Virus record (IMG/VR): IMGVR_UViG_3300009788_000013 | Location: 1 to 61,153 of that record | Length of the DNA stretch: 61,153 nucleotides | Strand: one strand, 5' to 3' | Source: a virus | Lineage: Duplodnaviria; Caudoviricetes | In this document: positions 24,776 to 54,868 of the stretch, one piece after another | Layout: each line of letters begins with the position of its first letter | How positions within the stretch are numbered: the stretch's first letter is position 1 | Made by a program: the position numbers and the translations under genes | The notes under the pieces: model-generated | Databases searched by the model: none | Told to the model about the DNA's origin: nothing | The model's input: the letters and a program-made list of their open reading frames with translations, nothing else

Positions 24776-26098
24776 CTAGCGGCGCTCGTAGCCGGACTGA
24801 TGATCATCTTTGGGGATGAACAGCGGCCCAACTACCACTGGCCGGCGACGGCGCACGAGGAGCTTTGACAGCGCGTACACCATGGCGTCTACCCGATCCG
24901 GGGATTTCCCATCAACGTGGGGCTGCCACGTGCACATCTGAGCTTCGAGCATCGGCATCGATCCGATATGGTGGATTCTTCCCTGCTCGTAGAGCATCTG
25001 GATCGGTTCAGCCCTTGCCTGTTTTCCTCTGCTCGCATGGATCAACGATATTGGCAGTTTGCCGCCCGCCCCATTGATCGTGTCGCGTACCATTTCCCCA
25101 CCCTGATTTTTTTCCGCTACGATCACATCAGCATCCCAGCTCTCATAGAGATCACGAGTCCGACGCCCCCATGCTGACGGCATCATTTTGCCGCTCGCGT
25201 CGTGCAGGATATACCCGTCCCCGTCCACGCCTTCACCCGCTACGATGATCCCTGCCTCATCCGCCCCTTCCCCGTCGCTCAGGCTCGGATCAACAGCGAT
25301 TACGATCCTCTTCAGCTCCGGGGCTTGATTCACTCGATACCGATCAATTAGGGCATTACTCCACAAGGCCCCCGGCATATCCTCTAGCAGCTCTCCAAGG
25401 AGTTCCTGCTGAGCAAGGCTCGTCCCCTCATATTGCTCGATGAACTCCGCGAAGCTCGCGCCCAGGTTCGCCAGATTCTCGTAGGTGGTTCCCCTAGTGG
25501 TGACAGTGTGAGGTGAGTCTAGGATAGCTCTCAGCTTCGGAATCGGCTTTGGTGTCGTCGCTACCATACACTGGGCCTTGCCAAGTCGCAGGGCCAACAT
25601 CAGCGTGTCCCAGAGGTTATTTGCTCCGGGGCTCGCTAGATACCGACACGCCGCCAGCTCATCGATCCATGCCCAGTGGAACTGAGGACCGCGAAGGCGC
25701 TCTGGTGTATCGCCCGAGTAGATCTTCGCCAGTGATCCATTCTTGAATTTCAATTCCCCCAATGAGCGGTTCCAGTCTGTAATCATCCCAGGAGCGAGTA
25801 CTGACAGCAGCCCAGATGATCCTTCCACACACACATCACGGGCCGAGGTAAATGTGGGTGCGACGATTGCTGCTCGCTGCTCAGGCTCACCGACTAACCG
25901 GAGAGCAGTCTCCTCAGCCCCGCTTCGGGTTTTTCCGGTTCCCCTTCCCGCTAAGAAGATCCACGTGCGCCACGGCTGTTCCGTTCGTGGGGGGAGCTGA
26001 TTCGACCTTGCCTGTAATCTCCAGCGGAGGCGGTATTTTGCCTGGGTGTCCAGGTTGCGCCAGTCCTTGCTCGGCGAAGAGTCTGGTGATCTGGGCAT
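24776..26098 (-). CDS. terL: Terminase large subunit
   Basis: AGRGTGKT, RLRGPQF, WIDE, ATTP, IAVDP, SPDRVDA. Confidence 0.95.
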   Translation of the reverse strand: MPRSPDSSPSKDWRNLDTQAKYRLRWRLQARSNQLPPRTEQPWRTWIFLAGRGTGKTRSGAEETALRLVGEPEQRAAIVAPTFTSARDVCVEGSSGLLSVLAPGMITDWNRSLGELKFKNGSLAKIYSGDTPERLRGPQFHWAWIDELAACRYLASPGANNLWDTLMLALRLGKAQCMVATTPKPIPKLRAILDSPHTVTTRGTTYENLANLGASFAEFIEQYEGTSLAQQELLGELLEDMPGALWSNALIDRYRVNQAPELKRIVIAVDPSLSDGEGADEAGIIVAGEGVDGDGYILHDASGKMMPSAWGRRTRDLYESWDADVIVAEKNQGGEMVRDTINGAGGKLPISLIHASRGKQARAEPIQMLYEQGRIHHIGSMPMLEAQMCTWQPHVDGKSPDRVDAMVYALSKLLVRRRRPVVVGPLFIPKDDHQSGYERR

Positions 26099-26558
26099 CT
26101 ATGTCTACCTGTCCAGCGTGAACTGTCACATCTAGTCTACCGCCAGCGTCTAGGCCCAGCAATGTGGCCCGCCTGGCTTCAGCGGCAATCACTGCCATTG
26201 CAGCTCGGATCTGCTCAGAGGGCGTCCCACTCCGAACGATCGCCATCATGTCCAGCTCAATCCGCAGGAGCCTCATGTCCATCATTTGAACGATCTGCTC
26301 TGCTGTCTCCCTGGTATGCCGGATCACGTTGTCCAACTGGCGAGTGACTCGCTGGTAAGCGGTGGATAATGAGCAGTTCTGGGTGGAGGCGATCTCCTGA
26401 AATGAGGCCCCGTCTCGGCGGTGGTTGAGGGCTTGAAGTTCCAGCTCAACCTTCGTGATCAGTTTTTCTTTGATGCGGCCCTTGACCTTGGGCTGGTTTT
26501 TCTTCTTGCCCTTATCAGCACCGGGCTTCGGCTTTGGGCTGGCTCGTTTTTTAGTCAC
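25914..26558 (-). CDS. terS: Terminase small subunit (HTH)
   Basis: HTH GASFQEIA..STAYQRV, RRATLLGLDA; immediately upstream of terL. Confidence 0.7.
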   Translation of the reverse strand: MTKKRASPKPKPGADKGKKKNQPKVKGRIKEKLITKVELELQALNHRRDGASFQEIASTQNCSLSTAYQRVTRQLDNVIRHTRETAEQIVQMMDMRLLRIELDMMAIVRSGTPSEQIRAAMAVIAAEARRATLLGLDAGGRLDVTVHAGQVDIDAQITRLFAEQGLAQPGHPGKIPPPLEITGKVESAPPTNGTAVAHVDLLSGKGNRKNPKRG

Positions 26559-26620: not shown

Positions 26621-27220
26621 TCAATCATCGCTAGCCGATGCTAATAGCGCCATCTCCCATCGGACCTTCGGCGCTGCATCTACTTCGATGCTGTTGATGT
26701 TCCAGCGGTACTTCCTCTGTGTTCCCGCCCGATTCCCGCTTCGATCCCGTATCCGAGGCTTGGAGACGAACGCCTTTCTCCACCCAGCCGCTCTATAAAT
26801 CGTCCCAGTGTGAACTTCAAGATCCTGATACGCAATACACATCTCTCGCTCCGGGTGCGAACGGCGAAACCAGCGCACCATCCAACCGAGAAACCGCGAG
26901 GCCGTGTTTTTAGGAGCATCAGGCGCACAGGCCATTCGCCTTAGTTCAAGCCAGTGCTGCGGAAGACATCGTCCGCTTGGTGTGTTCCATAGAGCTACAG
27001 CGTAAGTGAGATCACCGCGCCGTGCGTGAAACGCAAACTGCCACGGCCCGTCTTGCACATTCGGTAGGCGTGAATGCCACAATCTGACCAGGGAGGTCGC
27101 ATGGGGCCTCGGGCAACGCTCAAAGACCAAATCCCGAGCATGGAGCGTGGAGGTTGGACTCGAACCACCATCCCCCGTCTGGAATAACGGGAATGCTACC
27201 CTTGCACCATCCACGCTCAT
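26621..27220 (-). CDS. mom: Mom-like GNAT DNA adenine hypermodification enzyme
   Basis: WHSRLP, LELRRMA, PKNTASRFL, IAYQD..HTGTIYRAAGW. Confidence 0.75.
   Translation of the reverse strand: MSVDGARVAFPLFQTGDGGSSPTSTLHARDLVFERCPRPHATSLVRLWHSRLPNVQDGPWQFAFHARRGDLTYAVALWNTPSGRCLPQHWLELRRMACAPDAPKNTASRFLGWMVRWFRRSHPEREMCIAYQDLEVHTGTIYRAAGWRKAFVSKPRIRDRSGNRAGTQRKYRWNINSIEVDAAPKVRWEMALLASASDD
27141..27216 (-). tRNA. tRNA-Gly(UCC)-like element embedded in the 5' coding region of mom
   Basis: Acceptor GCGUGGA/UCCACGC, U73, CCA; D-arm GUGC(AAGGGUA)GCAU; anticodon stem CCCGU/ACGGG with 8-nt loop UAUUCCAG; T-arm GGUGG(UUCGAGU)CC(A)ACC. Confidence 0.8.
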
Positions 27221-27249
27221 ATACCCCTCATCTGATCCGCAACTGCTAA

Positions 27250-28254
27250 CTATTCAGCTTCGGTTTTCGTCTTGGCATCTTCCTGCCCCGATACTAGCGC
27301 GAGTTCGTATTGATCGTCTTCGCTGATGGCCTCGATCTCTACCAGATTCTTGAGCGCTTGTCGGTAGTAGCTCTCTTTGAGTTCGACACCGATCGCCCGC
27401 CGTCCATTCTTCACCGCTCCATATACCTCGGAGCCGACGCCCATGAACGGAGTCAGCATCGTTTCACCGGGATTTGACCAGAGCACCATCGCCCGGTCGA
27501 TAACGTCGAGCTGTAGCGGATGGACGTGCTTTTCATCTTCCTGATCGCGAGCTGGTTTATATTTCAGCACTCGATCAAGCCGTACATCATCCCAGAATGC
27601 CGAGGCGTACTGCCGCCATATCCAATGCGAGTAGCGATTCTCTGTCTGCTTACCAGTCCATCCTTTGTATCGCATCAGTTCAGCTGGAATCTGACGCGAT
27701 CCCGCATAACGCGTCAATCCTTTCGGATGAGCGATTGGGATCTTGTTCTCACCCTTGCACCGGAATGCCAATAGGTAATCCGCACTGGCAACTGTACATC
27801 GGGAGGAGTCGTCCACTATCGTCTTGTGAGCCAGTGATTTCATCATCGTGCGATTCCTTACGGTAAGAGGTTCTTTCCAGACGTGGTATCGAGCCACATA
27901 GCGGAATCCAATCTTCTCGTGCATTCGAATAATATCACCGGAGAAGTCTATCAGATAGTCATTCTTACCGGAGTTACTGCTCGGCACGTCGGCGCAATGG
28001 ACAAGAGTCATTCGCCCCGGCATCGTTAGTCGGAATAGCTCATTAACAACGAATCTGTAGTGTTCGAAGAATTCTCCGTAGTCGCGGCTGTTCGAGAGAT
28101 CTCGCGCCGAAGAACTGTAGTGATACAGGCCAGCGAATGGCGGTGAGTAGATCGAGAGATGGATCGATCCGTCCGGTAGAGTCGGCATCACCTCTAGGCA
28201 GTCGCCGCAATAGGCGGCATATCGATCATTAATCTTTTGATGTTTCACAGCCAT
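27250..28254 (-). CDS. Amino-DNA methyltransferase (N4mC/N6mA, beta class)
   Basis: YSPPF catalytic motif precedes HVHPLQ and TPFMGVGSE...GVELK. Confidence 0.9.
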   Translation of the reverse strand: MAVKHQKINDRYAAYCGDCLEVMPTLPDGSIHLSIYSPPFAGLYHYSSSARDLSNSRDYGEFFEHYRFVVNELFRLTMPGRMTLVHCADVPSSNSGKNDYLIDFSGDIIRMHEKIGFRYVARYHVWKEPLTVRNRTMMKSLAHKTIVDDSSRCTVASADYLLAFRCKGENKIPIAHPKGLTRYAGSRQIPAELMRYKGWTGKQTENRYSHWIWRQYASAFWDDVRLDRVLKYKPARDQEDEKHVHPLQLDVIDRAMVLWSNPGETMLTPFMGVGSEVYGAVKNGRRAIGVELKESYYRQALKNLVEIEAISEDDQYELALVSGQEDAKTKTEAE

Positions 28255-29657
28255 GTTGGCACCTCCACTTCGTTGTCATATTTCCTCCCTGTATCTACTC
28301 TCAGAGCATCGTTCATGTGAGACACCAGCGCGGTAAACATTCGATCCGCCGCCTGTGATTTGCGCCTGAGATTGTCCTTAACTCCACGTTCACCCTCAGT
28401 CACCACCAGATCCACTGTCACTTGGTTCTGTTGGCCAAACCGCCAGCAGCGCCGGACGGCCTGATAGTATTGCTCATAGCTGTGGCTGGCGAACGTCACC
28501 ACATGCGAGCAGTGTTGCCAGTTCAGGCCCCATGCTCCGATCTTCGGCTTGATGATTGCCACGCGAAGTTTACCGCTCCCGAAGTCTGTATAAATCTCTT
28601 CCTTCTCATCGTCTGGAGTAGCGCCGGCAATCTCGCGGGCCTCCGGAAGCAATCCTTTTAGGATCTTCCCCTCATCGTTGAGGTGGCACCAGATCACGGC
28701 TGGACGTTTCGTGCCAGATATTAGTTCCGCCACCATCTCACAGCGCTCCTGTATCGTTCGACGGCGCTCCTCTCGCTCTTCGTGGAAACTTCTAGCCGGT
28801 AGAGCAAACAACATTCCATCAGCCAGAGTTCTGGTCTCAACTATATGCTCGACCTCAACCAGTGGCGGGAGAATGAATCCGTCATCATCGCAACCAATAT
28901 CGGATGGCTTGCGGAGCGCTCGCGCCCACGAACATACCCAACGCCAGAACCCTTCTTCGGCATGGCCTTTGAATCGCCAGCGTTGACCAGCCCATTGCCG
29001 AGGTGCTGCGTAACCTTTCCATCTACCTTTCACATCAATGGTGTTATTGTCGTTCACGAAGAACCGATTGAGCATGTCCATATGCCCTAGCTCACCAAGG
29101 GCCTCGCTCGATGTCCCTAGCTCGATGTAATCATTAGGGGCCGCTGTCGCCGTACACAGCAAGCGATATGGCAGCGTCCTGAGAAATTCGGTAACCTGAG
29201 CTTTCCGCACACCATCGAAGTTTTTCAAGATGCTCGATTCATCGCATACCACACCCGCGAAATCGGCTGGCTCGAACATGTGCAGCTTCTCGTAGTTCGT
29301 CACCACAATACCGATAGTCGGATCCCATTCCCCATCTCGTGAGCGCTGGGCCTCAATACCGAACTTCTCAGCCTCCGTAATTGTCTGTGGACCTACCGCT
29401 AGTGGCGTTAGAATCAGGACTGGACGACCAGTCTTGCGGACAATGTTCTCAGCCCATACTAGCTGCATGGGAGTCTTACCGAGTCCGCAATCCGCGAAGA
29501 TCGCCGCCTTGCCCTTTCGGAGCGCCCAATCTACAAGGGCCTTCTGGAAGTCAAAAAGGAACTCCGGCATCCAGAGCGGATCAAATCCGGAGAACTGATC
29601 AGCCTGGGCTTTGTTATCAAGAAACTTCTGGTAATCACCGTTACTGCTCATCATCAT
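28245..29657 (-). CDS. SF2 / SNF2-like helicase paired with the MTase
   Basis: DCGLGKT, DESS, TATAAPND, QAVRRCWRFGQ. Confidence 0.9.
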   Translation of the reverse strand: MMMSSNGDYQKFLDNKAQADQFSGFDPLWMPEFLFDFQKALVDWALRKGKAAIFADCGLGKTPMQLVWAENIVRKTGRPVLILTPLAVGPQTITEAEKFGIEAQRSRDGEWDPTIGIVVTNYEKLHMFEPADFAGVVCDESSILKNFDGVRKAQVTEFLRTLPYRLLCTATAAPNDYIELGTSSEALGELGHMDMLNRFFVNDNNTIDVKGRWKGYAAPRQWAGQRWRFKGHAEEGFWRWVCSWARALRKPSDIGCDDDGFILPPLVEVEHIVETRTLADGMLFALPARSFHEEREERRRTIQERCEMVAELISGTKRPAVIWCHLNDEGKILKGLLPEAREIAGATPDDEKEEIYTDFGSGKLRVAIIKPKIGAWGLNWQHCSHVVTFASHSYEQYYQAVRRCWRFGQQNQVTVDLVVTEGERGVKDNLRRKSQAADRMFTALVSHMNDALRVDTGRKYDNEVEVPTWL

Positions 29658-32080: not shown

Positions 32081-32243
32081 AGAACATACCCTCCTCTAGA
32101 GTTCCATGGCCCTGCCGGTGTCCCCTTGCGTTGATAACATTAATTCCCCACCAGATCTCCCGATCAGTCAAATCGACTAGGAATGTTCCGGGAGCGGCGA
32201 ACTTTACCATCATCCCGTCTTGATTGCTTTGTTCTATCCTCAT
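32007..32243 (-). CDS. Hypothetical protein
   Basis: ATGA-coupled to the helicase. Confidence 0.45.
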   Translation of the reverse strand: MRIEQSNQDGMMVKFAAPGTFLVDLTDREIWWGINVINARGHRQGHGTLEEGMFYDPRDRPWRSRQGERANRDTDERE

Positions 32244-34090
32244 GCTCTGATCACCTCCATCAGTTCGTCTGGGAGTTGCCGTTTATATTTCCACACGATA
32301 CGCCGACCGAGTTGCGCCTGTCTAATGCTCAGCTCGTCCCGTCCAGCGAGCGATTTCCCGATATACGTATCAAATTTGTTATAGCCGTGCCCATCGAGAG
32401 CCTGCGCACCGTCACAAGCCTCTGCCAGTAGCCTCAGGGCCTCGTGTATGGCGTTGATCTGCTCTGGGGTGAGTGAGACTACCTTGCCGTTCACCTCATC
32501 GCTCCTAGCCCCCTTACGGCGCGGCAACACCGGCTCCTGCTCCTCTTCCCGATCCAAGGCCCGATCAATCACCTCCTGTTTCTCAATTAGTGTATGGGCC
32601 ATCCGGCAATCCAGCGATCCAGCGAGTACCAGATGCTGCACCATCACCGAATCTTTCTGTCCGATCCGATGGCAGCGATCCTCGGCCTGCGTGATATTGC
32701 CGGGCACCCAATCAAGTTCCGCGAATATGACATGACTAGCAGCAGTGAGCGTTATACCGACTCCTGCGGCCTGGATGTTGCCAATGAATACCTGAATGCT
32801 AGGATCAGTCTGGAACCGATCAACAGCCTCCCGTCGCTTCAGCATCGGTGTCTCACCCGTGAGCTTCACAGCCCGATCACCGAACAGCTCCATCAATCCC
32901 GCCACCATATCTTTGTGATGAGCAAAAACCACCACTTTGCCACTATCCCCTATGGCATTCTCAACATGTTCTACGACGTGCGGGATTTTCGCCATCGCTA
33001 CTTCGTGGCGCTTTGCGGACATCTCGGTAAATGCTGTTCGTCCCGCCTCTCTGAGCCTGTCAACGGCGAGCTTGTAGGCGCTCCCATCCTCATCTGCCTT
33101 CGCCAGCTCAACCTCGGCCTTCAGAAGTTCCAGCTTTTCCTCGTGGGCTTCGTACGCTTTGGCCTCAGCTGCTACTACTCGGCTCGCTCCGTTCGGTGGA
33201 ATCTCCACAACCTGCCGTCGCTTGGCGGGCAGCTCAGGCAGCACATCGGCCTTCAGTCTACGAACCATCACCCGCTCCCGCATATAGCTCTGGAGTTGAT
33301 CCAAATTTGATGCACCGTCCGTTTCCCATCCCCAGCGGCTCCGATATCCAGCACAGTAGGTTTCCACGAAGTATAGCCAGCCTCTAAACAGCCCTAGCGC
33401 CTTGAGTACCGGCAGAACCTCGATCGGCCTGTTCGGGATCGGTGTACCACTGAGAAACATCTGCCGAGTAGCACCCTCCACCAGCCCCTTATTGTCCCGA
33501 TCACCCAGGACTGCAACCGTTCGTTTCGTTTTCGGGTTTTTGAGATAGTGGCACTCATCGATGATCACACCATCCCATTTCACCGAGGACAGCTTCTCGC
33601 GGTGTTTCCCTATGATGTCGTAATTGATGATCAGCACCTCGGAGGTGTCTACATCGCACTGTTTGCCGATCGCTACAGAGATCCGCATCGGCCTCACGAG
33701 CCAGCGCTTCAGCTCCCGCTCCCAGTTCAATCGGAGCGAAGCCGGACAGATCACCAGCACTCGCTTCATTGCCGGATCGGCATTCAGGACGCCGATGGCT
33801 TCAATGGTTTTCCCCAATCCCATCTCATCCCCGAACAGTACACCGGTACGTTTCAGAGCATAGTTGATACCAGCGATCTGGTAGGGGAGGTAGGCAAGTC
33901 CATCGGGGCAAGGGATATTGATATCGGCTGTGGTGGTGGCCGCTCTCGATTCGGCGACGGCCTCTTTGCGCTCCACGTCCGCTGTGCAAGATGCTGCCCA
34001 GCGCCCGGCCTCGGTTTTCACGAGCTTACCATGCTTCGGGGCCACGCGCTCGCCGCAATCGACGCAGTGGATTTCGTACTTGTTCGTCAT
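32240..34090 (-). CDS. SNF2-family (HARP/SMARCAL1-like) helicase
   Basis: DEMGLGKT, DECH, LSGTP, QAEDRCHRIGQ. Confidence 0.93.
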   Translation of the reverse strand: MTNKYEIHCVDCGERVAPKHGKLVKTEAGRWAASCTADVERKEAVAESRAATTTADINIPCPDGLAYLPYQIAGINYALKRTGVLFGDEMGLGKTIEAIGVLNADPAMKRVLVICPASLRLNWERELKRWLVRPMRISVAIGKQCDVDTSEVLIINYDIIGKHREKLSSVKWDGVIIDECHYLKNPKTKRTVAVLGDRDNKGLVEGATRQMFLSGTPIPNRPIEVLPVLKALGLFRGWLYFVETYCAGYRSRWGWETDGASNLDQLQSYMRERVMVRRLKADVLPELPAKRRQVVEIPPNGASRVVAAEAKAYEAHEEKLELLKAEVELAKADEDGSAYKLAVDRLREAGRTAFTEMSAKRHEVAMAKIPHVVEHVENAIGDSGKVVVFAHHKDMVAGLMELFGDRAVKLTGETPMLKRREAVDRFQTDPSIQVFIGNIQAAGVGITLTAASHVIFAELDWVPGNITQAEDRCHRIGQKDSVMVQHLVLAGSLDCRMAHTLIEKQEVIDRALDREEEQEPVLPRRKGARSDEVNGKVVSLTPEQINAIHEALRLLAEACDGAQALDGHGYNKFDTYIGKSLAGRDELSIRQAQLGRRIVWKYKRQLPDELMEVIRA

Positions 34091-35066: not shown

Positions 35067-36407
35067 CTATATCGTCTCATCGTCTCCGTCTTCAGTAATC
35101 ATCTGGAACCGAACGCTGCGCGGATTGAATTGCAGCTCGGCCTTCCCTTTCGGCCCATTGCGCTGCTTTCGGATCAGGATGCTGATCGGGCATGGGTTGC
35201 CCGTTCTGATACTCGATTTCTCAGCGTCTCGATCTACATGTAAAAAGAGCACCGTATCGGCATCCTGCTCCAGTGATCCCGAATCGCGGAGGTGATGTAG
35301 ATCGGGTTGCCCACCAGATTTCGCAATCTCTCGATTCAGTTGTGAGAGGGCCAATATCGGTACATCGAATTCTCGGGCCATCAATTTTAGCGCCCGGCTA
35401 ATCTCTGAGATCTCCTCGACCCGTTTGTCCATTTGCCGCGCAGTCCTCATCAGCTGTAGATAGTCGATGATCACCAGCCCTGGCGGTGTACCGTCCGCCG
35501 TTAGACGTTGGAGCGCAGCAAACTGAGCCGATGGTGTGCTGGTGGTCGAATGATCTATCAGTAGAGGCGTCTTATGAATCCGTTCGAGAGCTATCTGTGC
35601 ACTAGCAACTTCGTCGTCACTCAATTGCCCCGCCCTCATCTCCTGTAGGCTAAGCCCTGTCTCGACGCACACAAGCCGCTGGATGATCTCAGTTGCTCGC
35701 ATCTCCAGTGAAAACCAGACGACTCTAATATTCCGCTTCACTGCTACTAATGCGATCTGGCCTGCTGCCGCCGATTTCCCGACACTCGGCCTAGCTGCCA
35801 GGATGATCAATTCCCCAGGAGTGAATGCGGTAATCGTATTATTCAGGTTACTCCACGGGCTCGGTACTGCACCACGAGCTAAACCCGGATTCAGAATCTG
35901 CCCTACACCCCCGGCCACCTCTACCATCTGCTCGATAGAGAGAAGCCCCCCTTTTTTATCCTCGCTAGATAACTGCTGGTAGAATCGTGCCGCTGCTGCC
36001 ACCGTGGCTCGCTCAGCTCCGCGTTCACAGCAGGCTAGAATCAGCTCTTGTGCTTTCCTTGCCGCACGTCGTAGAATAGCCTTGTCGCGCAGCAGAATCA
36101 GGTATTCATCGATGGCGTAGACTTTGGGCAACTGATCATCCATCGATACGAGATAACCGATACCACCTATAGAATTCAGCTGGCCTCGCTTCATCAATTC
36201 CTTGGCCACCAGCACTCTGTCGATCTCACTACCCCTACTGCTCAGGACCCGCATACAGTCCCAGATTCGCTGATGAGTGATCAATGAGAAATCGTCTTGT
36301 TCTAGTTCTCCCATCACAGGGATGCGAGTATCAGGGTATCGGAGCAATGAGCCTAGCACTAAACATTCAACATCCACGGCTGCTGGTAGTTCTATTTCTC
36401 CCTTCAT
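35067..36407 (-). CDS. dnaB: Replicative DNA helicase
   Basis: AARPSVGKS, FSLEM, IIDYLQL, LSQLNR, LRDSGSLEQDAD, KQRNGP. Confidence 0.96.
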   Translation of the reverse strand: MKGEIELPAAVDVECLVLGSLLRYPDTRIPVMGELEQDDFSLITHQRIWDCMRVLSSRGSEIDRVLVAKELMKRGQLNSIGGIGYLVSMDDQLPKVYAIDEYLILLRDKAILRRAARKAQELILACCERGAERATVAAAARFYQQLSSEDKKGGLLSIEQMVEVAGGVGQILNPGLARGAVPSPWSNLNNTITAFTPGELIILAARPSVGKSAAAGQIALVAVKRNIRVVWFSLEMRATEIIQRLVCVETGLSLQEMRAGQLSDDEVASAQIALERIHKTPLLIDHSTTSTPSAQFAALQRLTADGTPPGLVIIDYLQLMRTARQMDKRVEEISEISRALKLMAREFDVPILALSQLNREIAKSGGQPDLHHLRDSGSLEQDADTVLFLHVDRDAEKSSIRTGNPCPISILIRKQRNGPKGKAELQFNPRSVRFQMITEDGDDETI

Positions 36408-49406: not shown

Positions 49407-49553
49407 TTACCTCTCAATAATCCGACAGGAATACCGGAAAGACTTCATTACTCCACACAACTGGCAGATGATAAGATGCCCACATTTCTTCCCAATACCC
49501 GTAAGCGAACATATATCCATTGTCACCGAACGACAAAAATTACAATAACTCAT
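49407..49553 (-). CDS. Small Cys-rich protein (48 aa)
   Basis: MSYCNFCRS...CGHLIICQLCG; TGATG overlap with the tape measure stop. Confidence 0.4.
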   Translation of the reverse strand: MSYCNFCRSVTMDICSLTGIGKKCGHLIICQLCGVMKSFRYSCRIIER

Positions 49554-52500
49554 CACGGAGTAACCCCCACGTCATTCAGATCCGCTATCAGAGCTTCTCC
49601 AACGACGGAACTTTCCATCAGCACCTGTACCAGTAAAGGTTGACGCACAGTAGCGACAGGTTGTTCTAATGGCCTAATCTTATTCGAGATCCCACGAAGA
49701 GCAGGAACCACATCAGTACCGATCAGATCTGTATTCGCAATTATCTTTCTCAGCCGATCACTGATCTGTTCCGAGATAGCCAAGCCTTCTCTACTGAATG
49801 CAAGTAGGCCCATCAACGTCTCATTGATACCTACTATTCCGACAGGTTCCGAATCCTCGGGCTGAGTATCAGTCTCGCTAGCAGAAACATCAATAAGAGC
49901 ATCCGTGCCTCGCTGAATCTGATTTAAAAGATCCCTCACTCTTTCTGTGCTATTCTCACCGATACCGAGTAGTCTTGTAATGCCCAACCGAATCTGATCC
50001 AGTATCCCGGTCTTCGTATCCCCAGTGATGCGGATAATGCTGAGATGCTGATTTACATCGCTGATGCTGTCTTCGATCCGAGCCAGTTCCGCTACACCTT
50101 GAGAATCGACTATAATCCTCTGGCTGCTTAGGAGTGTTAACCGTTGCAAGCTATCGTGGATATCTGAGAGGATATCTGGTATACCAATCTCAACATCTAG
50201 GTTACGGATCTTCTCTGCTACCTGATCGATACTCTGTTTGATCCTAGAGAGCATTACAACGACTCGATCAGTGTCCTGACCTAATACCTTGATCTCAATT
50301 GGGGGAATGACAGGAGACTCTAGCGGCGACAGCTCGACAGTAGAAGAAACCTCATCCGGGGTTTGCTCAGTTGGTGATGTGCCTCCGGCAGCAGTTCGCA
50401 GTAATGTCCTTAATCGATCACTGATATCCCGTAGCGCGGGGGCTATGTCGGTGTGGAGAAAATCAGCACTTCGGTTTACCTCAATCAACCTGTCGTGGAC
50501 TTGCCCTAGAATGTCCGCATTGTTTTTACTAGTACTGCTAGCGATCTCAATCAGCCTGTCATGGATCTGTGCAAGGATGTCAGTCTGGACTGTATGTAGA
50601 TAATTGCGAATACTCTCCAGCTTAGGGAGCCACAGTAATTGAGTTGCTAGGACGTTGAGAGTATGTATCATCCCGAAGCGTGTATTCTCTTCTATCGCAT
50701 TCAGTGTGCTCTCCCGCCGACGATTTCCAAAAATGCTAGTCACTAATTTAGCTACCTGGATACCGAGATCTACAGCTGCTCCTATTGCTGTCCCGATACC
50801 TGGAGCTATCAACGTCCCTAATACTGTTGCTCCACCAGCCCCAGCGCCTGGGAAACCACCACCGCCACCAGTGCCGCTACCACCACCAGGGGTAGGAACA
50901 CCTGGAACAGTAGGAGCCCCAGGAATCGGTATCCCTCCAAGTTGTATTCCGCCTCCGCCTCCAATCCCAAATAGCCCTCCGAGACTCTTGAGAATGCCAC
51001 TGTCCCCGAACAGCCACCCCATCAGCTTCTTAATGCCGCCCTCGATCAATCCATTGATAGCTTTCGATATCGGCTCCAGGAATGTTCCCAGAATACTCTC
51101 AGTACTAAACCGAACCAATGAGCGAATGAAACCATCAGGGCCAAAGAGCATGTCCTGGAATGCGCCCTTCAGTTTGCCGAAGAATGTTAACCCCGCTTCA
51201 TCCTGGCCGATCTGTTCCAGTTCCTTATTGACATCAATCCGATATGCTTCCCAGTCTTTTCTCTGATCGAGCAGTTCCGCCTCAAGCTCTGCCTCTTGCT
51301 GTTGCACTTTGGCTAGAGCAGTTGCACGTATCTGCTCCAGTTTCCCGCCTTCTCCGATAAGCGAATCCCTATAGGTGTTCCATGCGGTATCCGCTTTGCC
51401 TAGCTCCTCTTTCAGTTTCCCGGTTTGGGCCTCCGACTCCGTTGTGTGCTTCAGAGTGATGGCGGCAATCTTGTCCTCGGCATTCTTTTGAAAAAGTGCC
51501 CACTCCTCTGCCTGATCACCTAACCTCCCCTGTAGATCAGCCGTTTGCTTCTCTAGCTGCCTGTCAGCGTCACTGGTGGCCTTCTCACGAGCTTCCTGGT
51601 TCTCGGCGAGGAATTGATCATGATCGCGCTTGCGGCGCTCTAGAGACTCCTCAAGATCCCTCTGTTGTCGCTCCAGTTTGCGCTTATGATCAGCAGTCCA
51701 GTCCTCTAGATCTTCTTTCAGCCGGCGGATATTCTCTCTGTGATCATCCCGCTTCCGTTTCAACTTGGTGTTTAGATTTTTGATCTCGCGTGAGTCAGCT
51801 GTCTTGCCTTCTTTCTCTAGCCTCTTGATCTGTTTTTTTATGTCCTCCTCTTCTCGCTTGAGCCGCTTATCTGCATCAGCTACCCGCCTATCATTCGATC
51901 GTTTCCGATCCTTGATACTGTCAGCAGAATCTTCACTCAGAGCATCAAGCCGCTGTTGGGTGTCAGTAACGAAATCATCATAACGCTCTGTCTGATCACG
52001 AAGATTATCGTCTAGGTTCTCAAGCCGCTCCGCCAAGGCTCTCCGGTTGGCCTTTGTCACCCTATCTATCCGAGCGATGATGTCAGCCCGGCTCTCTTCG
52101 TATTTCTGCCGTCGCTTCTCTAGCCCATCGACCACAGCCTGAACTTCTTTCTCTGCTGCCTCTCGATGTTTCTTCTCTACCTCGCCGATTTCAGCTAGGA
52201 TATCGTCTCGGTGCTTTTGCCACTTCCCACGGCGCTTATCAAGAGAGTCGAATACATCCTGTGTAGCTGCCTCCAAGTCCCCTTTATTCTTCGCTCTGAT
52301 AGCTGTAAGCTGTTCAGCTACTGATGCCTGATGATCAATCCATGCCTGTTCCCGCTCCTGAAGCGACTGCTCTAGTTCCTCGCGCTGCTCGGCCAGCTTC
52401 CGTTTCTCATCACCACCACCAAAGAATAACCCGACAATGTTGTCAGCGATGTTCTTCCCGAAGTCACTGATGATGGTAGAGACTTGCCGCCCAAAGTCTT

Positions 52501-54868
52501 TCCATTTATCTACTTGCTTGGCGGTGCTCTTGCCGAGCATCTCTTCTAGTTCATCCAGGCGGCGCTGCTGCTCCTCTGTGATATCACCGCCCGTTGATTG
52601 ATGGGCAACCTTCAACTTCCGAAGATGATTCAGTTCGAACTCAAGGATAACTGTTCTATTCCCTTTGAACTCCTCTTCTATTGTTTTAAGTGCTTCTCCA
52701 GATTTTCTAGCGATCTCAGCAAGCACTTCGGGATTCTTGATGCCAGCCTCGGCGAAGATCTCATCTAGATTCCTCATCGCTTCGCCAGCAGCATCGACAG
52801 TTGCACATGCTGCTTGGAGAATAAAATCCGGTACCGGCCCCCATGCCGCTATGATCTTGGGCGGAATCTGGCTAATCAGTATTCCTGCATTCTTAGCAGC
52901 CTCGGCTAGTTGATCGGTAGCTCTCTGAGCATGGCCCATGAGCACCGATGTATTACGCATAGCCTCTTCCCAGTCTAGTTGTCGCTGTGTCAGCTGCTCT
53001 ATTTCAACCTTTGCCCCTCTCGTCTCCTTACCGAATATCGCCGTAGCAAGTCCGAGCCGCTTCTGTGCATCTTTCAAATCATCAGCAGCCATACTTGCTT
53101 TTTGCTTTGCATCGGTGAGCTTATCTGCATCTGCTGTGCCTTGCAGGAATGCTTCTGATACTGCGATCAGTTCTTTGTTAGCTGCTTTCCAGGCTTCTCT
53201 TGCCTCTTCAACGCCCCTTGTTGTACCAGCTAGAGAAATCCCAGACTCCTTAATAGCCTTATCTAGTCTCACCTGTGCTACTCGTAGCCGTTCAGCAGCT
53301 TCACCTAGCTTGTCTGACACAATCCCAGTCTGTTGAAACGTACTGAAGAGCTTGTCGTATTCTCGCTTAGCATCAACTGCTGATTTCTTTGCCCCTTCAA
53401 GCGTCTCAGCAAGGCGTCCTGTCGCAGTGGTGAGATCAATCATCCTGACTTTTCCTGTACCGCCAACACCACCAAGTACTGCATCAACACTACCTAATGC
53501 CGCAATATCACGTAATGATTGCAAGATCGCTGGTAGCGGCCCAAGTGACATCCTGTCTAGTGCTTCACGAACGAGATCAAGGCCAGGAACTTTGGCTGTG
53601 AATTCATCGATGCGGCTATTTATCTCGATCCATCCAGCTACCGATTGGGCGACGACTGATGCTAGTGATCCGAGACCTTCAATAGCCTCCACAGTAGCAT
53701 CTGTTATTTCTGTTAATGAATCTGCAACCGCTATGAATGCGGGCTCGGCATCTTCACTGCCTTCTAACGCCTTCACCATCTCACTAGTGAATTCAGTCAT
53801 GCTCTCGGCGTTATCAGTGAGAGCTGGTAGCAGCCGTTCACCTAGAGCGATTCGGAAGCCCTCCGTAGCAGAAGATAGCTTCGTCATCTGGCCCTTGTAG
53901 CCTTCCATTTGGATCTCGGCTACTCGCTGGGCTGTTCCACCAGCATTCTCTAGTTCCCTGGTGAAATCACGTAGTTTGTCGGCCCCTCCCTGTACCAGCT
54001 TGATCATCCCTGTACCGCGCTTACCGAAGATCTCTAATAGTTCCCCAGCAGTCGCGCCACTATCCCCCAATTCTTGGATGATGTCTGACAATGGACGCAT
54101 CTTGCCAGCTCCATCTAATGCGGTAACGCCTAGCCTCTCTAGCAGGTCAGCAGCTTCCTTTGATGGATTCAATAGTTCTGCAATCGATCCGCGTAACGAA
54201 GTCCCGCCTAATGATGCTTGTATGCCAGCATCCCCCAATAGGCCGAGTGCTGCTGATACTTCTTCAAATTGCAAACCAGCAGCACTCGCTACAGGTGCGA
54301 CAAATTTCATCGCTTCACCGAGTTGTGAAAGTGATGTATTCGAACTAGTGAATGTCTTGGCTAAGACATCGTTCACTCGGCTTAATTCTTCAACCTGAAT
54401 TCCATAGCCGCTTAGAACATTAGAGGTGATGTCAGCAGCTCTAGCCAAGGACAGATTACCAGCCGCTGCGAGATCAAGAACGCCTGGCATAGCGGTTAAT
54501 ATTTCAGTGACTTCGAATCCCGCCATTGCGAGAAAGTTCATTCCTTCGGCTGCTTCTGTCGCTGTGAACTTTGTGGTTGCACCAAGATCCTTAGCCTGGT
54601 TTGTTAGTAGTTCGAAATCCTCACCTGTAGCCCCCGAGACAGCGCGGACTTTATTCATGCTCGCTTCGAACTCACTAGCTGCTTCTACAGCAGCACCCGC
54701 AAAGGCGAATATTTTCGAAATGGCGAGTGCTCCACCGATAGCGATCCCAGCCTTGACTGCGATACCTGATAGAGATTTGAGCGCACCTCCAGCCTGAGCA
54801 GTCCCTGCTGTGAACTGTCCTGTGTTTATATTGAGATTCGCTACGAGATCAGCAACGGTGTTCGCCAC
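49553..54868 (-). CDS. Tape measure protein (TP901-type core)
   Basis: 1771 aa; LGATTKFTA-EAAEG..LAMAGF, LGEAMKFVAP; ~40-aa aromatic-spaced repeats. Confidence 0.95.
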   Translation of the reverse strand: MANTVADLVANLNINTGQFTAGTAQAGGALKSLSGIAVKAGIAIGGALAISKIFAFAGAAVEAASEFEASMNKVRAVSGATGEDFELLTNQAKDLGATTKFTATEAAEGMNFLAMAGFEVTEILTAMPGVLDLAAAGNLSLARAADITSNVLSGYGIQVEELSRVNDVLAKTFTSSNTSLSQLGEAMKFVAPVASAAGLQFEEVSAALGLLGDAGIQASLGGTSLRGSIAELLNPSKEAADLLERLGVTALDGAGKMRPLSDIIQELGDSGATAGELLEIFGKRGTGMIKLVQGGADKLRDFTRELENAGGTAQRVAEIQMEGYKGQMTKLSSATEGFRIALGERLLPALTDNAESMTEFTSEMVKALEGSEDAEPAFIAVADSLTEITDATVEAIEGLGSLASVVAQSVAGWIEINSRIDEFTAKVPGLDLVREALDRMSLGPLPAILQSLRDIAALGSVDAVLGGVGGTGKVRMIDLTTATGRLAETLEGAKKSAVDAKREYDKLFSTFQQTGIVSDKLGEAAERLRVAQVRLDKAIKESGISLAGTTRGVEEAREAWKAANKELIAVSEAFLQGTADADKLTDAKQKASMAADDLKDAQKRLGLATAIFGKETRGAKVEIEQLTQRQLDWEEAMRNTSVLMGHAQRATDQLAEAAKNAGILISQIPPKIIAAWGPVPDFILQAACATVDAAGEAMRNLDEIFAEAGIKNPEVLAEIARKSGEALKTIEEEFKGNRTVILEFELNHLRKLKVAHQSTGGDITEEQQRRLDELEEMLGKSTAKQVDKWKDFGRQVSTIISDFGKNIADNIVGLFFGGGDEKRKLAEQREELEQSLQEREQAWIDHQASVAEQLTAIRAKNKGDLEAATQDVFDSLDKRRGKWQKHRDDILAEIGEVEKKHREAAEKEVQAVVDGLEKRRQKYEESRADIIARIDRVTKANRRALAERLENLDDNLRDQTERYDDFVTDTQQRLDALSEDSADSIKDRKRSNDRRVADADKRLKREEEDIKKQIKRLEKEGKTADSREIKNLNTKLKRKRDDHRENIRRLKEDLEDWTADHKRKLERQQRDLEESLERRKRDHDQFLAENQEAREKATSDADRQLEKQTADLQGRLGDQAEEWALFQKNAEDKIAAITLKHTTESEAQTGKLKEELGKADTAWNTYRDSLIGEGGKLEQIRATALAKVQQQEAELEAELLDQRKDWEAYRIDVNKELEQIGQDEAGLTFFGKLKGAFQDMLFGPDGFIRSLVRFSTESILGTFLEPISKAINGLIEGGIKKLMGWLFGDSGILKSLGGLFGIGGGGGIQLGGIPIPGAPTVPGVPTPGGGSGTGGGGGFPGAGAGGATVLGTLIAPGIGTAIGAAVDLGIQVAKLVTSIFGNRRRESTLNAIEENTRFGMIHTLNVLATQLLWLPKLESIRNYLHTVQTDILAQIHDRLIEIASSTSKNNADILGQVHDRLIEVNRSADFLHTDIAPALRDISDRLRTLLRTAAGGTSPTEQTPDEVSSTVELSPLESPVIPPIEIKVLGQDTDRVVVMLSRIKQSIDQVAEKIRNLDVEIGIPDILSDIHDSLQRLTLLSSQRIIVDSQGVAELARIEDSISDVNQHLSIIRITGDTKTGILDQIRLGITRLLGIGENSTERVRDLLNQIQRGTDALIDVSASETDTQPEDSEPVGIVGINETLMGLLAFSREGLAISEQISDRLRKIIANTDLIGTDVVPALRGISNKIRPLEQPVATVRQPLLVQVLMESSVVGEALIADLNDVGVTP

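Follow-up and report, generated by a model that had tools for sequence, protein, structure and literature searches.

The stretch of DNA considered here, called the window throughout, comprises all 61,153 base pairs (bp) of the virus record IMGVR_UViG_3300009788_000013 (Caudoviricetes), a complete phage genome with direct terminal repeats that carries nearly all of its long open reading frames (ORFs) on the minus strand. One of these encodes a protein of 199 amino acids (aa) that resembles Mom, the DNA-modifying enzyme of phage Mu, and lies in the co-directional order helicase, N6/N4 DNA methylase, Mom-like ORF, putative small terminase and large terminase. The first codons of the Mom-like ORF coincide with an element of 76 nucleotides (nt) on the same strand that resembles a glycine transfer RNA (tRNAGly). 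This element is the subject of the present study. Coordinates are collected in Table 1, and element nucleotide i corresponds to window position 27217-i.

The Mom-like protein matches the Pfam family Mom (PF25680) with 45.7 bits at a cut-off of 27.1 (E = 8e-12). The match covers positions 3-130 of the 202 in the profile and starts in the protein at residue 32, directly after the element. A search across 5.8 billion proteins returned 851 homologues, and 35 homologues were aligned for residue conservation and as input for AlphaFold2. The resulting model has a mean predicted local distance difference test score (pLDDT) of 84.2 and a predicted template modelling score (pTM) of 0.78. Foldseek ranks chains B and A of the Mu Mom structure 8bv8 first and second (E = 1.5e-8, template modelling score (TM) 0.63), followed by other GNAT proteins. 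Identity to Mu Mom in the structural alignment is 17%, and the family profile also matches 8bv8 by sequence (E = 0.005). Residues R95 and S108, which are invariant in all 35 homologues, align with R111 and S124 of Mu Mom; both are reported as essential in the source passages on Mu Mom, where the wording 'M107-S124 (including R111 and S124)' places the numbering. Judged by profile match and predicted structure, the ORF product is a Mom-like protein, as the first-pass annotation of this DNA had proposed, and has a putative GNAT fold. Mu Mom is longer (231-232 aa) and carries a helix-turn-helix (HTH)-like insertion at approximately residues 175-209, whose deletion is reported to abolish activity. 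The C-terminal third of the window protein has no Pfam match and shows a basic, partly unstructured stretch around residues 153-184 in the model, and for the N-terminal leader no fold is predicted (residues 1-19 have a pLDDT below 50). Among cultured phages, a tblastn search against 50,697 phage records gave no close homologue (best identity 24.5%, 0 records with at least 80% query coverage). Some homologues are considerably longer and have C- or N-terminal extensions beyond the 199-aa core, such as P0003 with 326 aa. Two viral loci (L123 and L147) show two tandem matches to the Mom-family hidden Markov model (HMM) downstream of the element, in L123 in frames f0 and f1, which suggests duplicated Mom paralogues.

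The element was originally described as a cloverleaf with glycyl-tRNA synthetase (GlyRS) identity elements, a D-loop GG, a tRNA-type T-loop and an encoded CCA, and each of these features is present in the window. ARAGORN calls it as the single tRNA of the entire 61,153-bp window, and hence as the sole tRNA-like gene of this complete phage genome, with the type 'tRNA-???' and a two-base anticodon 'tc'. The Rfam tRNA model RF00005 matches positions 27145-27216 on the minus strand with 27.3 bits, below the gathering score of 29 (E = 0.0035, or 3.9e-5 over the whole virus record). A covariance model termed R1, which was built from 14 copies of the window's structural type including the window itself, scores this training member with 90.6 bits. 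The Rfam model of mascRNA gives a weak match at the same place (19.3 bits, cut-off 42.5). Bacterial GlyRS is reported to recognize its tRNA by G1-C72, C2-G71, G3-C70, U73, C35 and C36. This set is completely present in the window element, which in addition has the terminal CCA, the GG in the D-loop and TTCC in the anticodon loop.

Two parts of the structure deviate from a canonical tRNA. The anticodon stem is closed by a U31.G38 wobble pair, which leaves a loop of 6 nt in place of the canonical 7-nt loop with U33 and a three-base anticodon; the 8-nt loop of the first-pass annotation results only if this wobble is open, and the register seen throughout the family favours the 6-nt version (ATTCCA). 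The T stem is not a continuous stem of 5 bp and contains a bulged A between pairs 50-62 and 49-64. This bulge had been noted before and turned out to be nearly invariant in the family. In the minimum free energy (MFE) fold of the window sequence, the acceptor stem is lengthened by pairs -1:73 and -2:74 (z = -2.67; 1 of 200 shuffles as good). An extension of this kind had been suggested to hide the start codon. The two pairs in the window stand, and conservation does not: 38 of 58 distinct contexts have no extra pair, and the pairs -1:73, -2:74 and -3:75 form in 20, 11 and 1 of the 58, respectively. It is conservation and covariation among relatives that settle that the cloverleaf of the window exceeds chance.

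Two sets of related loci were examined, one of 80 viral loci fetched via homologues of the Mom-like protein and a second, independent one of 24 loci from metagenome-assembled genomes (MAGs) labelled with many phyla, among which Planctomycetota relatives recur. In 28 of the 80 viral loci, ARAGORN predicts a tRNA whose position coincides exactly with the beginning of the Mom ORF, and it types these as Gly(tcc) in 13, Gly(acc) in one, '???(tc)' in 13 and 'Trp(cca)' in one. With the covariance model, the element is found at the 5' end of Mom in 67 of the 80 loci and in the window (each E < 1e-8), always with a length of 76 nt except for a single copy of 79 nt, and the only other matches in the viral loci are two tRNA-Met genes. 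Furthermore, 17 of the 24 MAG loci contain the element. Among 13 relatives compared with the Rfam tRNA model, 8 exceed the gathering score (33-44 bits).

The base pairing of these copies is conserved and shows compensatory changes; covariation of the cloverleaf in homologues had been named beforehand as a check. In the ungapped alignment A3 (13 distinct sequences, preselected by ARAGORN), paired cells amount to 98.5% and compensatory changes affect 13 of 21 pairs, a value reached by 0 of 500 shuffles, with slid controls at 36-48% paired. Alignment A5, which comprises 58 loci with 55 distinct sequences fitted to the covariance model, gives 98.9% paired cells and 15 of 21 compensatory pairs (0 of 500 shuffles as high; slid controls 34-49%). 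All four stems contribute, including the pairs that flank the bulged A: compensatory changes occur at pairs 3-7 of the acceptor stem, at three of the four D-stem pairs, and at pairs 50-62, 49-64 and 48-65 around the bulge in the T stem. Within the acceptor stem, G1-C72, C2-G71 and G3-C70 are nearly invariant (GC in 53 of 55, CG in 55 of 55 and GC in 54 of 55). The covarying stems span Mom proteins that are just 35-40% identical to the window protein.

A scan of the viral collection that was blind to Mom and used a 20-nt T-arm motif including the bulge yielded at least 119 stretches, for which 80 loci are listed. A set of 119 distinct elements reveals which features are kept and which vary. GCG stands at the start of 117, and 99 encode NCCA at the end (TCCA 88, ACCA 10, GCCA 1). 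Of 54 distinct family copies, 44 have T and 10 have A at position 73. Every anticodon loop listed holds NCC, and anticodon position 34 is free, with TCC commonest and GCC, ACC and CCC also present. The loops themselves range from 5 to 9 nt, according to a crude hairpin finder. Accordingly, the features kept are those that bacterial GlyRS is reported to recognize, and those needed for decoding are relaxed. The bulged A of the T stem is almost universal and is retained even in distant copies (L098, L101 and L111). Two structural classes can be distinguished, one with a 6-nt anticodon loop and a 5-nt variable region, to which the window belongs, and another with a 7-nt loop and a 4-nt variable region. 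They differ by four one-base indels (7 or 8 nt in the D-loop, a single base or two at position 26, 6 or 7 nt in the anticodon loop and 5 or 4 nt in the variable region), which cancel pairwise so that the total stays at 76 nt.

Where the element is embedded in the ORF at its 5' side, as in the window, evidence of several kinds indicates that it is also translated. As the first-pass annotation had stated, it is read in frame within the first codons, namely as residues 2-27 of the Mom-like ORF. The 35 homologues share the leader consensus R-V-x-x-P-L-F ... G-G-S-x-P-T-S-x-L, in which the x of G-G-S-x-P is S, I, T or N, i.e. a codon A-N-T, as expected from the variable position of the GGTTCGANTCC T-loop. 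In all 68 copies considered, element nucleotide 1 is the second codon base of the Mom frame, and the frame is open throughout. In 54 of 59 distinct contexts, the closest ATG, GTG or TTG that precedes the element in frame is 4-16 nt away from it, and the starts of the relatives are often preceded by purine-rich stretches (20-nt upstream strings, judged by eye). A conserved internal start after the element is ruled out, as 32 of the 59 contexts have no in-frame start between element and Mom domain; in 11 of the 59, the whole stretch from the element to the Mom domain contains no in-frame ATG, GTG or TTG. The indels of the two structural classes compensate each other, so the reading frame is kept and is restored within a few codons. 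Among the 55 copies of the T-arm scan that are embedded in the 5' part of the ORF, 25 were tallied by length (76 nt in 18, 79 in 4 and 73 in 2, which differ by multiples of three, and 77 in one, the latter in another phase), and the remaining 30 given are all 76 nt long. Pro-Leu-Phe is encoded by nt 27-35 in 53 of 54 distinct copies, and the anticodon stem varies at synonymous sites (CCN, CTN or TTR). With T at nt 30, the Leu codon of nt 30-32 reads TTR in 15 of 16 cases; with C at this position, CTY is used in 31 of 58 (Fisher p = 5.6e-4, relatedness ignored). This codon use shows apparent selection on the amino acid. Finally, several of the Mom homologues at viral loci with no element (L007-L016, L018, L031 and L064), for example L008, L012, L014 and L015, keep an N-terminal extension with a P-L-[LF] motif. 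This extension resembles a relic, at the peptide level, of the codons of the D and anticodon arms; a search of the element-less loci for remnants of the element itself, with filters off, found none (best match a tRNA-Met, 17.9 bits).

The linkage of the element to Mom does not depend on this embedding. When the neighbourhood of the T-arm matches was searched within 1.5 kb with HMM A1 for the window's subfamily and then with HMM A7 for distant Moms, 74 of the 80 listed loci had a Mom-family ORF (63 by A1, 11 more by A7), and 6 of the 11 neighbours detected by A7 were confirmed as full-length Pfam Mom (E = 1e-28 to 1e-45). Among the six listed loci without Mom, L138, L144 and L192 have upstream flanks of just 56-383 nt, so an upstream Mom is possible there. 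Used as a query for related loci, the distant-Mom alignment A7 returned the same six contigs again and none that was new. The covariance model matched 78 of the 80 listed loci, which form the basis for the positions relative to the ORF, classified by openness of the frame irrespective of start codons. The element lies in the 5' part of the Mom ORF in 55 of these, in the C-terminal tail after the Mom domain in 6, over the Mom stop codon in one, as a separate gene approximately 15 nt downstream of the Mom ORF in 11, just upstream of the Mom ORF, followed by a separate Shine-Dalgarno (SD)-like stretch and ATG, in one (L128), and with no Mom visible in 4. A 110-kb MAG contig (L098) likewise has the element upstream of the Mom ORF with an in-frame stop inside; its T stem is wholly altered by compensation and still keeps the bulged A. 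Another copy, L101, is a GCC version in a different reading phase. Since the positions vary from 5' end to tail, stop codon, downstream and upstream, only a trans-acting product would fit them all, and the element apparently belongs to the Mom gene and not to the Mom start codon. Its carriers include several Mom subfamilies and MAGs of many phyla, and the comparison of loci indicates that many uncultured phages bring a matching tRNAGly-like RNA along with Mom, often inside the enzyme's own coding sequence.

Several signals next to displaced copies were seen by eye. In L128 (positions 1930-2065), hexamers resembling TTGACA and TACGAT stand ahead of the separate 79-nt element, and an SD-like stretch follows with the Mom ATG 13 nt past the CCA. 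In L186 (5810-5850), the Mom stop and the element are separated by a terminator-like hairpin that has a T run, and in L119, a locus of 1.4 kb in which no Mom was seen, a hairpin with a T run follows the element.

A function for such an RNA is suggested by Mu Mom, which transfers glycine from Gly-tRNAGly to N6 of adenine in double-stranded DNA (Silva et al. 2026, PMC13219725). The first-pass annotation had named this donor with reservation, and for Mu Mom it was demonstrated only in 2026. Mu Mom accepts all three E. coli tRNAGly isoacceptors and rejects Gly-tRNAAla (PMC13219725). Because glycine on tRNAAla is rejected, the tRNA body, and probably its acceptor end, matters to the enzyme. The paper treats the host tRNAGly pool as a resource to scavenge, and its main text contains no occurrence of 'tRNA-like', 'encoded tRNA' or 'cloverleaf'. 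In the literature searched, which did not extend to the supplements of PMC13219725, no paper was found that links Mom to a tRNA-like or phage-borne tRNA. The window protein resembles Mu Mom in its Pfam family, as its best structural match and in the conserved residues aligned with R111 and S124. In contrast, Mu has no tRNA-like element at mom (best match 9.2 bits, E = 0.16), uses host tRNAGly and controls mom via Com.

We consider it somewhat more likely than not (about 55%) that the element is a tRNA-like gene for a glycyl carrier dedicated to Mom, with which it would form a two-part module. This reading provides the best fit because it accounts for the glycine identity, the mostly encoded CCA, the relaxed decoding features, the T-stem bulge and the linkage to Mom. 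Starting from structure, conservation, Mom linkage and in-frame translation of the element, which are established, its further fate may be envisaged as follows. The element would be transcribed together with mom, and the folded cloverleaf would be excised, with its 5' end generated by RNase P and its 3' end trimmed to the encoded CCA. Host GlyRS could then glycylate the freed RNA via G1-C72, C2-G71, G3-C70, U73, C35 and C36, and the Mom-like GNAT enzyme would take the glycyl moiety from the charged RNA to modify adenine in the phage DNA. The bulged A of the T stem and the 6-nt anticodon loop may bar the RNA from EF-Tu and the ribosome, and such insulation would reserve a donor pool for Mom and supply a tRNA body that suits the enzyme in any host entered. 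Because the start codon is just 4 nt away from the acceptor stem, a given transcript would either initiate translation or undergo folding or excision, but not both, which would keep the enzyme scarce relative to its co-substrate. More tentatively, and with somewhat less than even confidence, the 5'-embedded form can be regarded as a same-strand dual gene, in which the N-terminal codons of the enzyme would at the same time be the tRNA that carries its co-substrate, competition between RNase P and the ribosome would set the ratio of enzyme to donor, and the bulged T stem and shortened anticodon loop would render the carrier orthogonal (visible to GlyRS and Mom, but not to EF-Tu or the ribosome) and the module portable across bacterial phyla. 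The idea of an enzyme with its cognate RNA, as first put forward, receives strong comparative support, as the element travels with several Mom subfamilies and has covarying stems and glycine identity. Concerning the two forms in which it had been phrased, a private donor or a substrate mimic, the data lean toward an excised donor, since the element also occurs downstream, upstream and in the 3' tail, positions that allow it no control over the start codon.

Several observations weigh against a dedicated carrier. Thirteen of the 80 close viral homologues lack the element, even with search filters off, and in a quick, midpoint-rooted tree the element-less loci (12 rows) and the window fall into one clade of 17 rows with a support of 99 in the Shimodaira-Hasegawa-like approximate likelihood ratio test (SH-aLRT); Mom of the window's subfamily can evidently do without it. 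Nor is a private tRNA a general requirement, because Mu Mom takes all host isoacceptors and works with host tRNAGly, and Mu has no element. No CCA is encoded in 20 of the 119 distinct elements, T-loops are degenerate in some copies, and approximately half of the elements carry a loop of 7 nt, with which decoding would be feasible. An anticodon loop of 6 nt or a T stem with a bulge may not be accepted by GlyRS. Excision of a 5'-embedded copy would break up the mom mRNA, which would call for a partition of transcripts, and a cis-regulatory role in this form could coexist with a donor role. Moreover, the covariation alignments A5 and A8 are fitted to the covariance model, and A3 was built from copies selected by ARAGORN.

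Such a cis-regulatory role by itself, with the cloverleaf in the mRNA acting as a substrate mimic that is bound by Mom or GlyRS and blocks the start codon in a feedback on a toxic enzyme, seems unlikely, albeit worth keeping in mind. Comparable feedback control is exerted by ThrRS on its operator, mom is tightly controlled in Mu, where Com is annotated as 'translational regulator of Mom', and with a start 4-16 nt away from the acceptor stem, as in 54 of 59 contexts, a folded or bound element would be expected to hinder the 30S subunit. Mu Mom also appears to recognize the acceptor end of tRNAGly (PMC13219725). Yet, for 19 of the 78 positioned elements the Mom start is out of reach (11 downstream, 6 in the tail, one over the stop, one upstream), the stem extension that would sequester the AUG is not conserved, and an operator would need neither the CCA encoded in 99 of 119 elements nor C35-C36 or the tertiary set of D- and T-loop. 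A somewhat fainter prospect is a tRNAGly that can be charged and supplements or replaces that of the host, for example where a defence system cleaves or depletes tRNAGly, and that serves translation and Mom alike with no special insulation. Phage tRNAs are common, 13 of the 80 loci carry a plain tRNA-Gly(tcc) according to ARAGORN, and the copies above the Rfam cut-off (8 of 13 tested) as well as the roughly half with 7-nt loops would suit such a supply function. The linkage to Mom in 74 of the 80 listed loci of the blind scan is very tight for this purpose, however, the element is the only tRNA in the genome, and a nearly universal bulged T stem together with many 6- or 8-nt loops, the window's among them, is unexpected for a decoding tRNA.

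We regard as quite improbable an ordinary tRNA gene upstream of a mis-called Mom, with the true start after the element and an accidental in-frame reading. It would agree with a Pfam match that starts only at residue 32, with an in-frame TTG in the window (L31, 27128-27130) 10 nt past the CCA, which encodes a Leu that is invariant in the 35 closest homologues and at which P0021 is listed as starting, and with the Mom ORFs that begin after the element in L098 and L128; in the 3'-tail forms, too, the ORF seems to run on through the element. On the other hand, this Leu is encoded by CTT or CTC in more distant loci, the contexts devoid of an in-frame start after the element (32 of 59) or even inside and after it (11 of 59) leave no place for such an initiation, and the upstream starts are conserved, often with SD-like stretches. 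The frame-preserving indels, the Leu codon switching and the N-terminal extension with PL[LF] that element-less relatives retain speak against it as well. A functionless, decaying relic of a captured tRNA gene or of an attP-type tRNA fragment is hardly credible: the loss of the element from 13 of 80 close homologues and the degenerate T-loops or broken acceptor stems of some copies, such as L102, could be read as decay, but all four stems show compensatory changes across Mom proteins 35-40% identical to that of the window, the cloverleaf is complete rather than a 3' fragment, and the bulged T stem and short loops do not resemble a host tRNA target. An integration-site (attP) fragment in particular was ruled out by the full covarying cloverleaf with its non-host features and by the methylase and terminase neighbours. 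No integrase was among the neighbouring genes by Pfam, with no dedicated integrase search made.

The closest functional parallel to a dedicated glycyl carrier is found in Staphylococcus aureus, whose non-proteogenic tRNAGly species serve FmhB, FemA and FemB, bind EF-Tu poorly and are marked by their D and T arms (Rietmeyer et al., PMC7826273). The likeness, dedicated glycyl donors for a non-ribosomal aminoacyl transferase, is an analogy at the level of function only. The staphylococcal tRNAs are cellular, confined to the staphylococcal lineage, fold into a normal cloverleaf and are not fused to the transferase gene, whereas the Mom element belongs to phages, shows the T-stem bulge, often together with an anticodon loop of 6 or 8 nt, and overlaps the ORF of the enzyme. 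Its poor binding to EF-Tu would be a presumption from structure, unlike that of the S. aureus tRNAs. With ordinary phage tRNAs the element shares the tRNA-shaped gene, and some copies are typed as Gly(tcc) by ARAGORN and pass the Rfam cut-off, but it differs by being the only one in its genome, tied to a single enzyme gene, non-canonical in T stem and loop, and placed inside an ORF of the same strand. TRNA mimics in longer transcripts, some of which are aminoacylated or cut by RNase P, are represented by the tRNA-like structures (TLS) at the 3' ends of plant viruses and by mascRNA. These are non-coding, eukaryotic or viral, and unrelated in sequence, whereas the Mom element lies in a bacterial-type coding sequence and adjoins an enzyme that uses such a tRNA. 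We know of no other case in which a tRNA gene and the coding sequence of an enzyme are the same DNA on the same strand with both under selection.

If the RNA is indeed the donor, it would be the first dedicated non-ribosomal tRNA of a phage, in parallel to the staphylococcal cell-wall tRNAs, and would provide a natural tRNA body that is possibly orthogonal to translation, a clear case of one sequence under simultaneous protein and tRNA selection, and a handle on tRNA recognition by Mom. For annotation, tRNA finders and gene callers will conflict at loci that combine Mom and the element.

Table 1. Features of the window around the Mom-like ORF and its tRNAGly-like element (nt numbers refer to the element).
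Feature	Window position	Strand	Basis or remark
Helicase ORF	28245-29657	-	Pfam Helicase_C, weak DEAD match
N6/N4 DNA methylase gene, upstream of mom	27250-28254	-	Pfam N6_N4_Mtase
Shine-Dalgarno-like GAGGGG	27224-27229	-	3 nt before ATG, read from sequence
Mom-like ORF, 199 aa (coordinates include stop)	26621-27220	-	Pfam Mom, AlphaFold2, Foldseek
ATG start of Mom-like ORF	27218-27220	-	4 nt upstream of element nt 1
tRNA-Gly-like element, 76 nt	27141-27216	-	ARAGORN, Rfam tRNA, family model R1
Acceptor stem, 5' strand, nt 1-7	27210-27216	-	pairs with 27145-27151, 7 of 7 pairs formed
D arm, stem nt 10-13/21-24, 7-nt loop with GG	27193-27207	-	family compensatory changes
Anticodon arm, stem nt 27-31/38-42	27175-27190	-	encodes Pro-Leu-Phe-Gln
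Anticodon loop, 6 nt, ATTCCA with U-C-C	27180-27185	-	family register
T arm, stem nt 48-52/60-65, loop TTCGAGT	27152-27169	-	family covariation
Bulged A in T stem, nt 63	27154	-	T stem GGTGG/CC-A-[A]-CC
Acceptor stem, 3' strand	27145-27151	-	read from sequence
Discriminator U73	27144	-	read from sequence
Encoded CCA	27141-27143	-	read from sequence
Pfam Mom stretch, residues 32-151	26768-27127	-	PF25680 match
Codon of R95, aligned with Mu Mom R111	26936-26938	-	profile alignment to 8bv8; 9-residue offset inferred
Codon of S108, aligned with Mu Mom S124	26897-26899	-	profile alignment to 8bv8; 9-residue offset inferred
Putative small terminase subunit	25914-26558	-	weak HTH_23 Pfam match; name inferred from adjoining terL
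Large terminase ORF	24776-26098	-	as listed

Upstream of mom, a gap of 29 nt separates the methylase stop from the Mom ATG, and no promoter-like or terminator-like sites were seen on the minus strand, either in this gap or near the element. Downstream, the two terminase ORFs overlap by 185 nt as listed, which probably reflects a mis-called start in one of them. When 10 further ORFs of the window were compared with Pfam, SNF2 and DnaB helicases came up and nothing related to tRNA. The phage thus carries, besides the helicase ORF next to the methylase, another helicase ORF at 32240-34090 (-), which alone of these two has the Pfam SNF2-related domain, and a DnaB-like helicase at 35067-36407 (-). 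In the MAG set, contig CAZJYI010000020.1 (101,884 bp) contains identical copies of the Mom locus (L094 and L096) approximately 50.8 kb apart, and the contig of L095 measures 50,822 bp; the former would appear to be a single phage genome assembled as a head-to-tail dimer. Finally, the window harbours an ORF of 1771 aa at 49553-54868.

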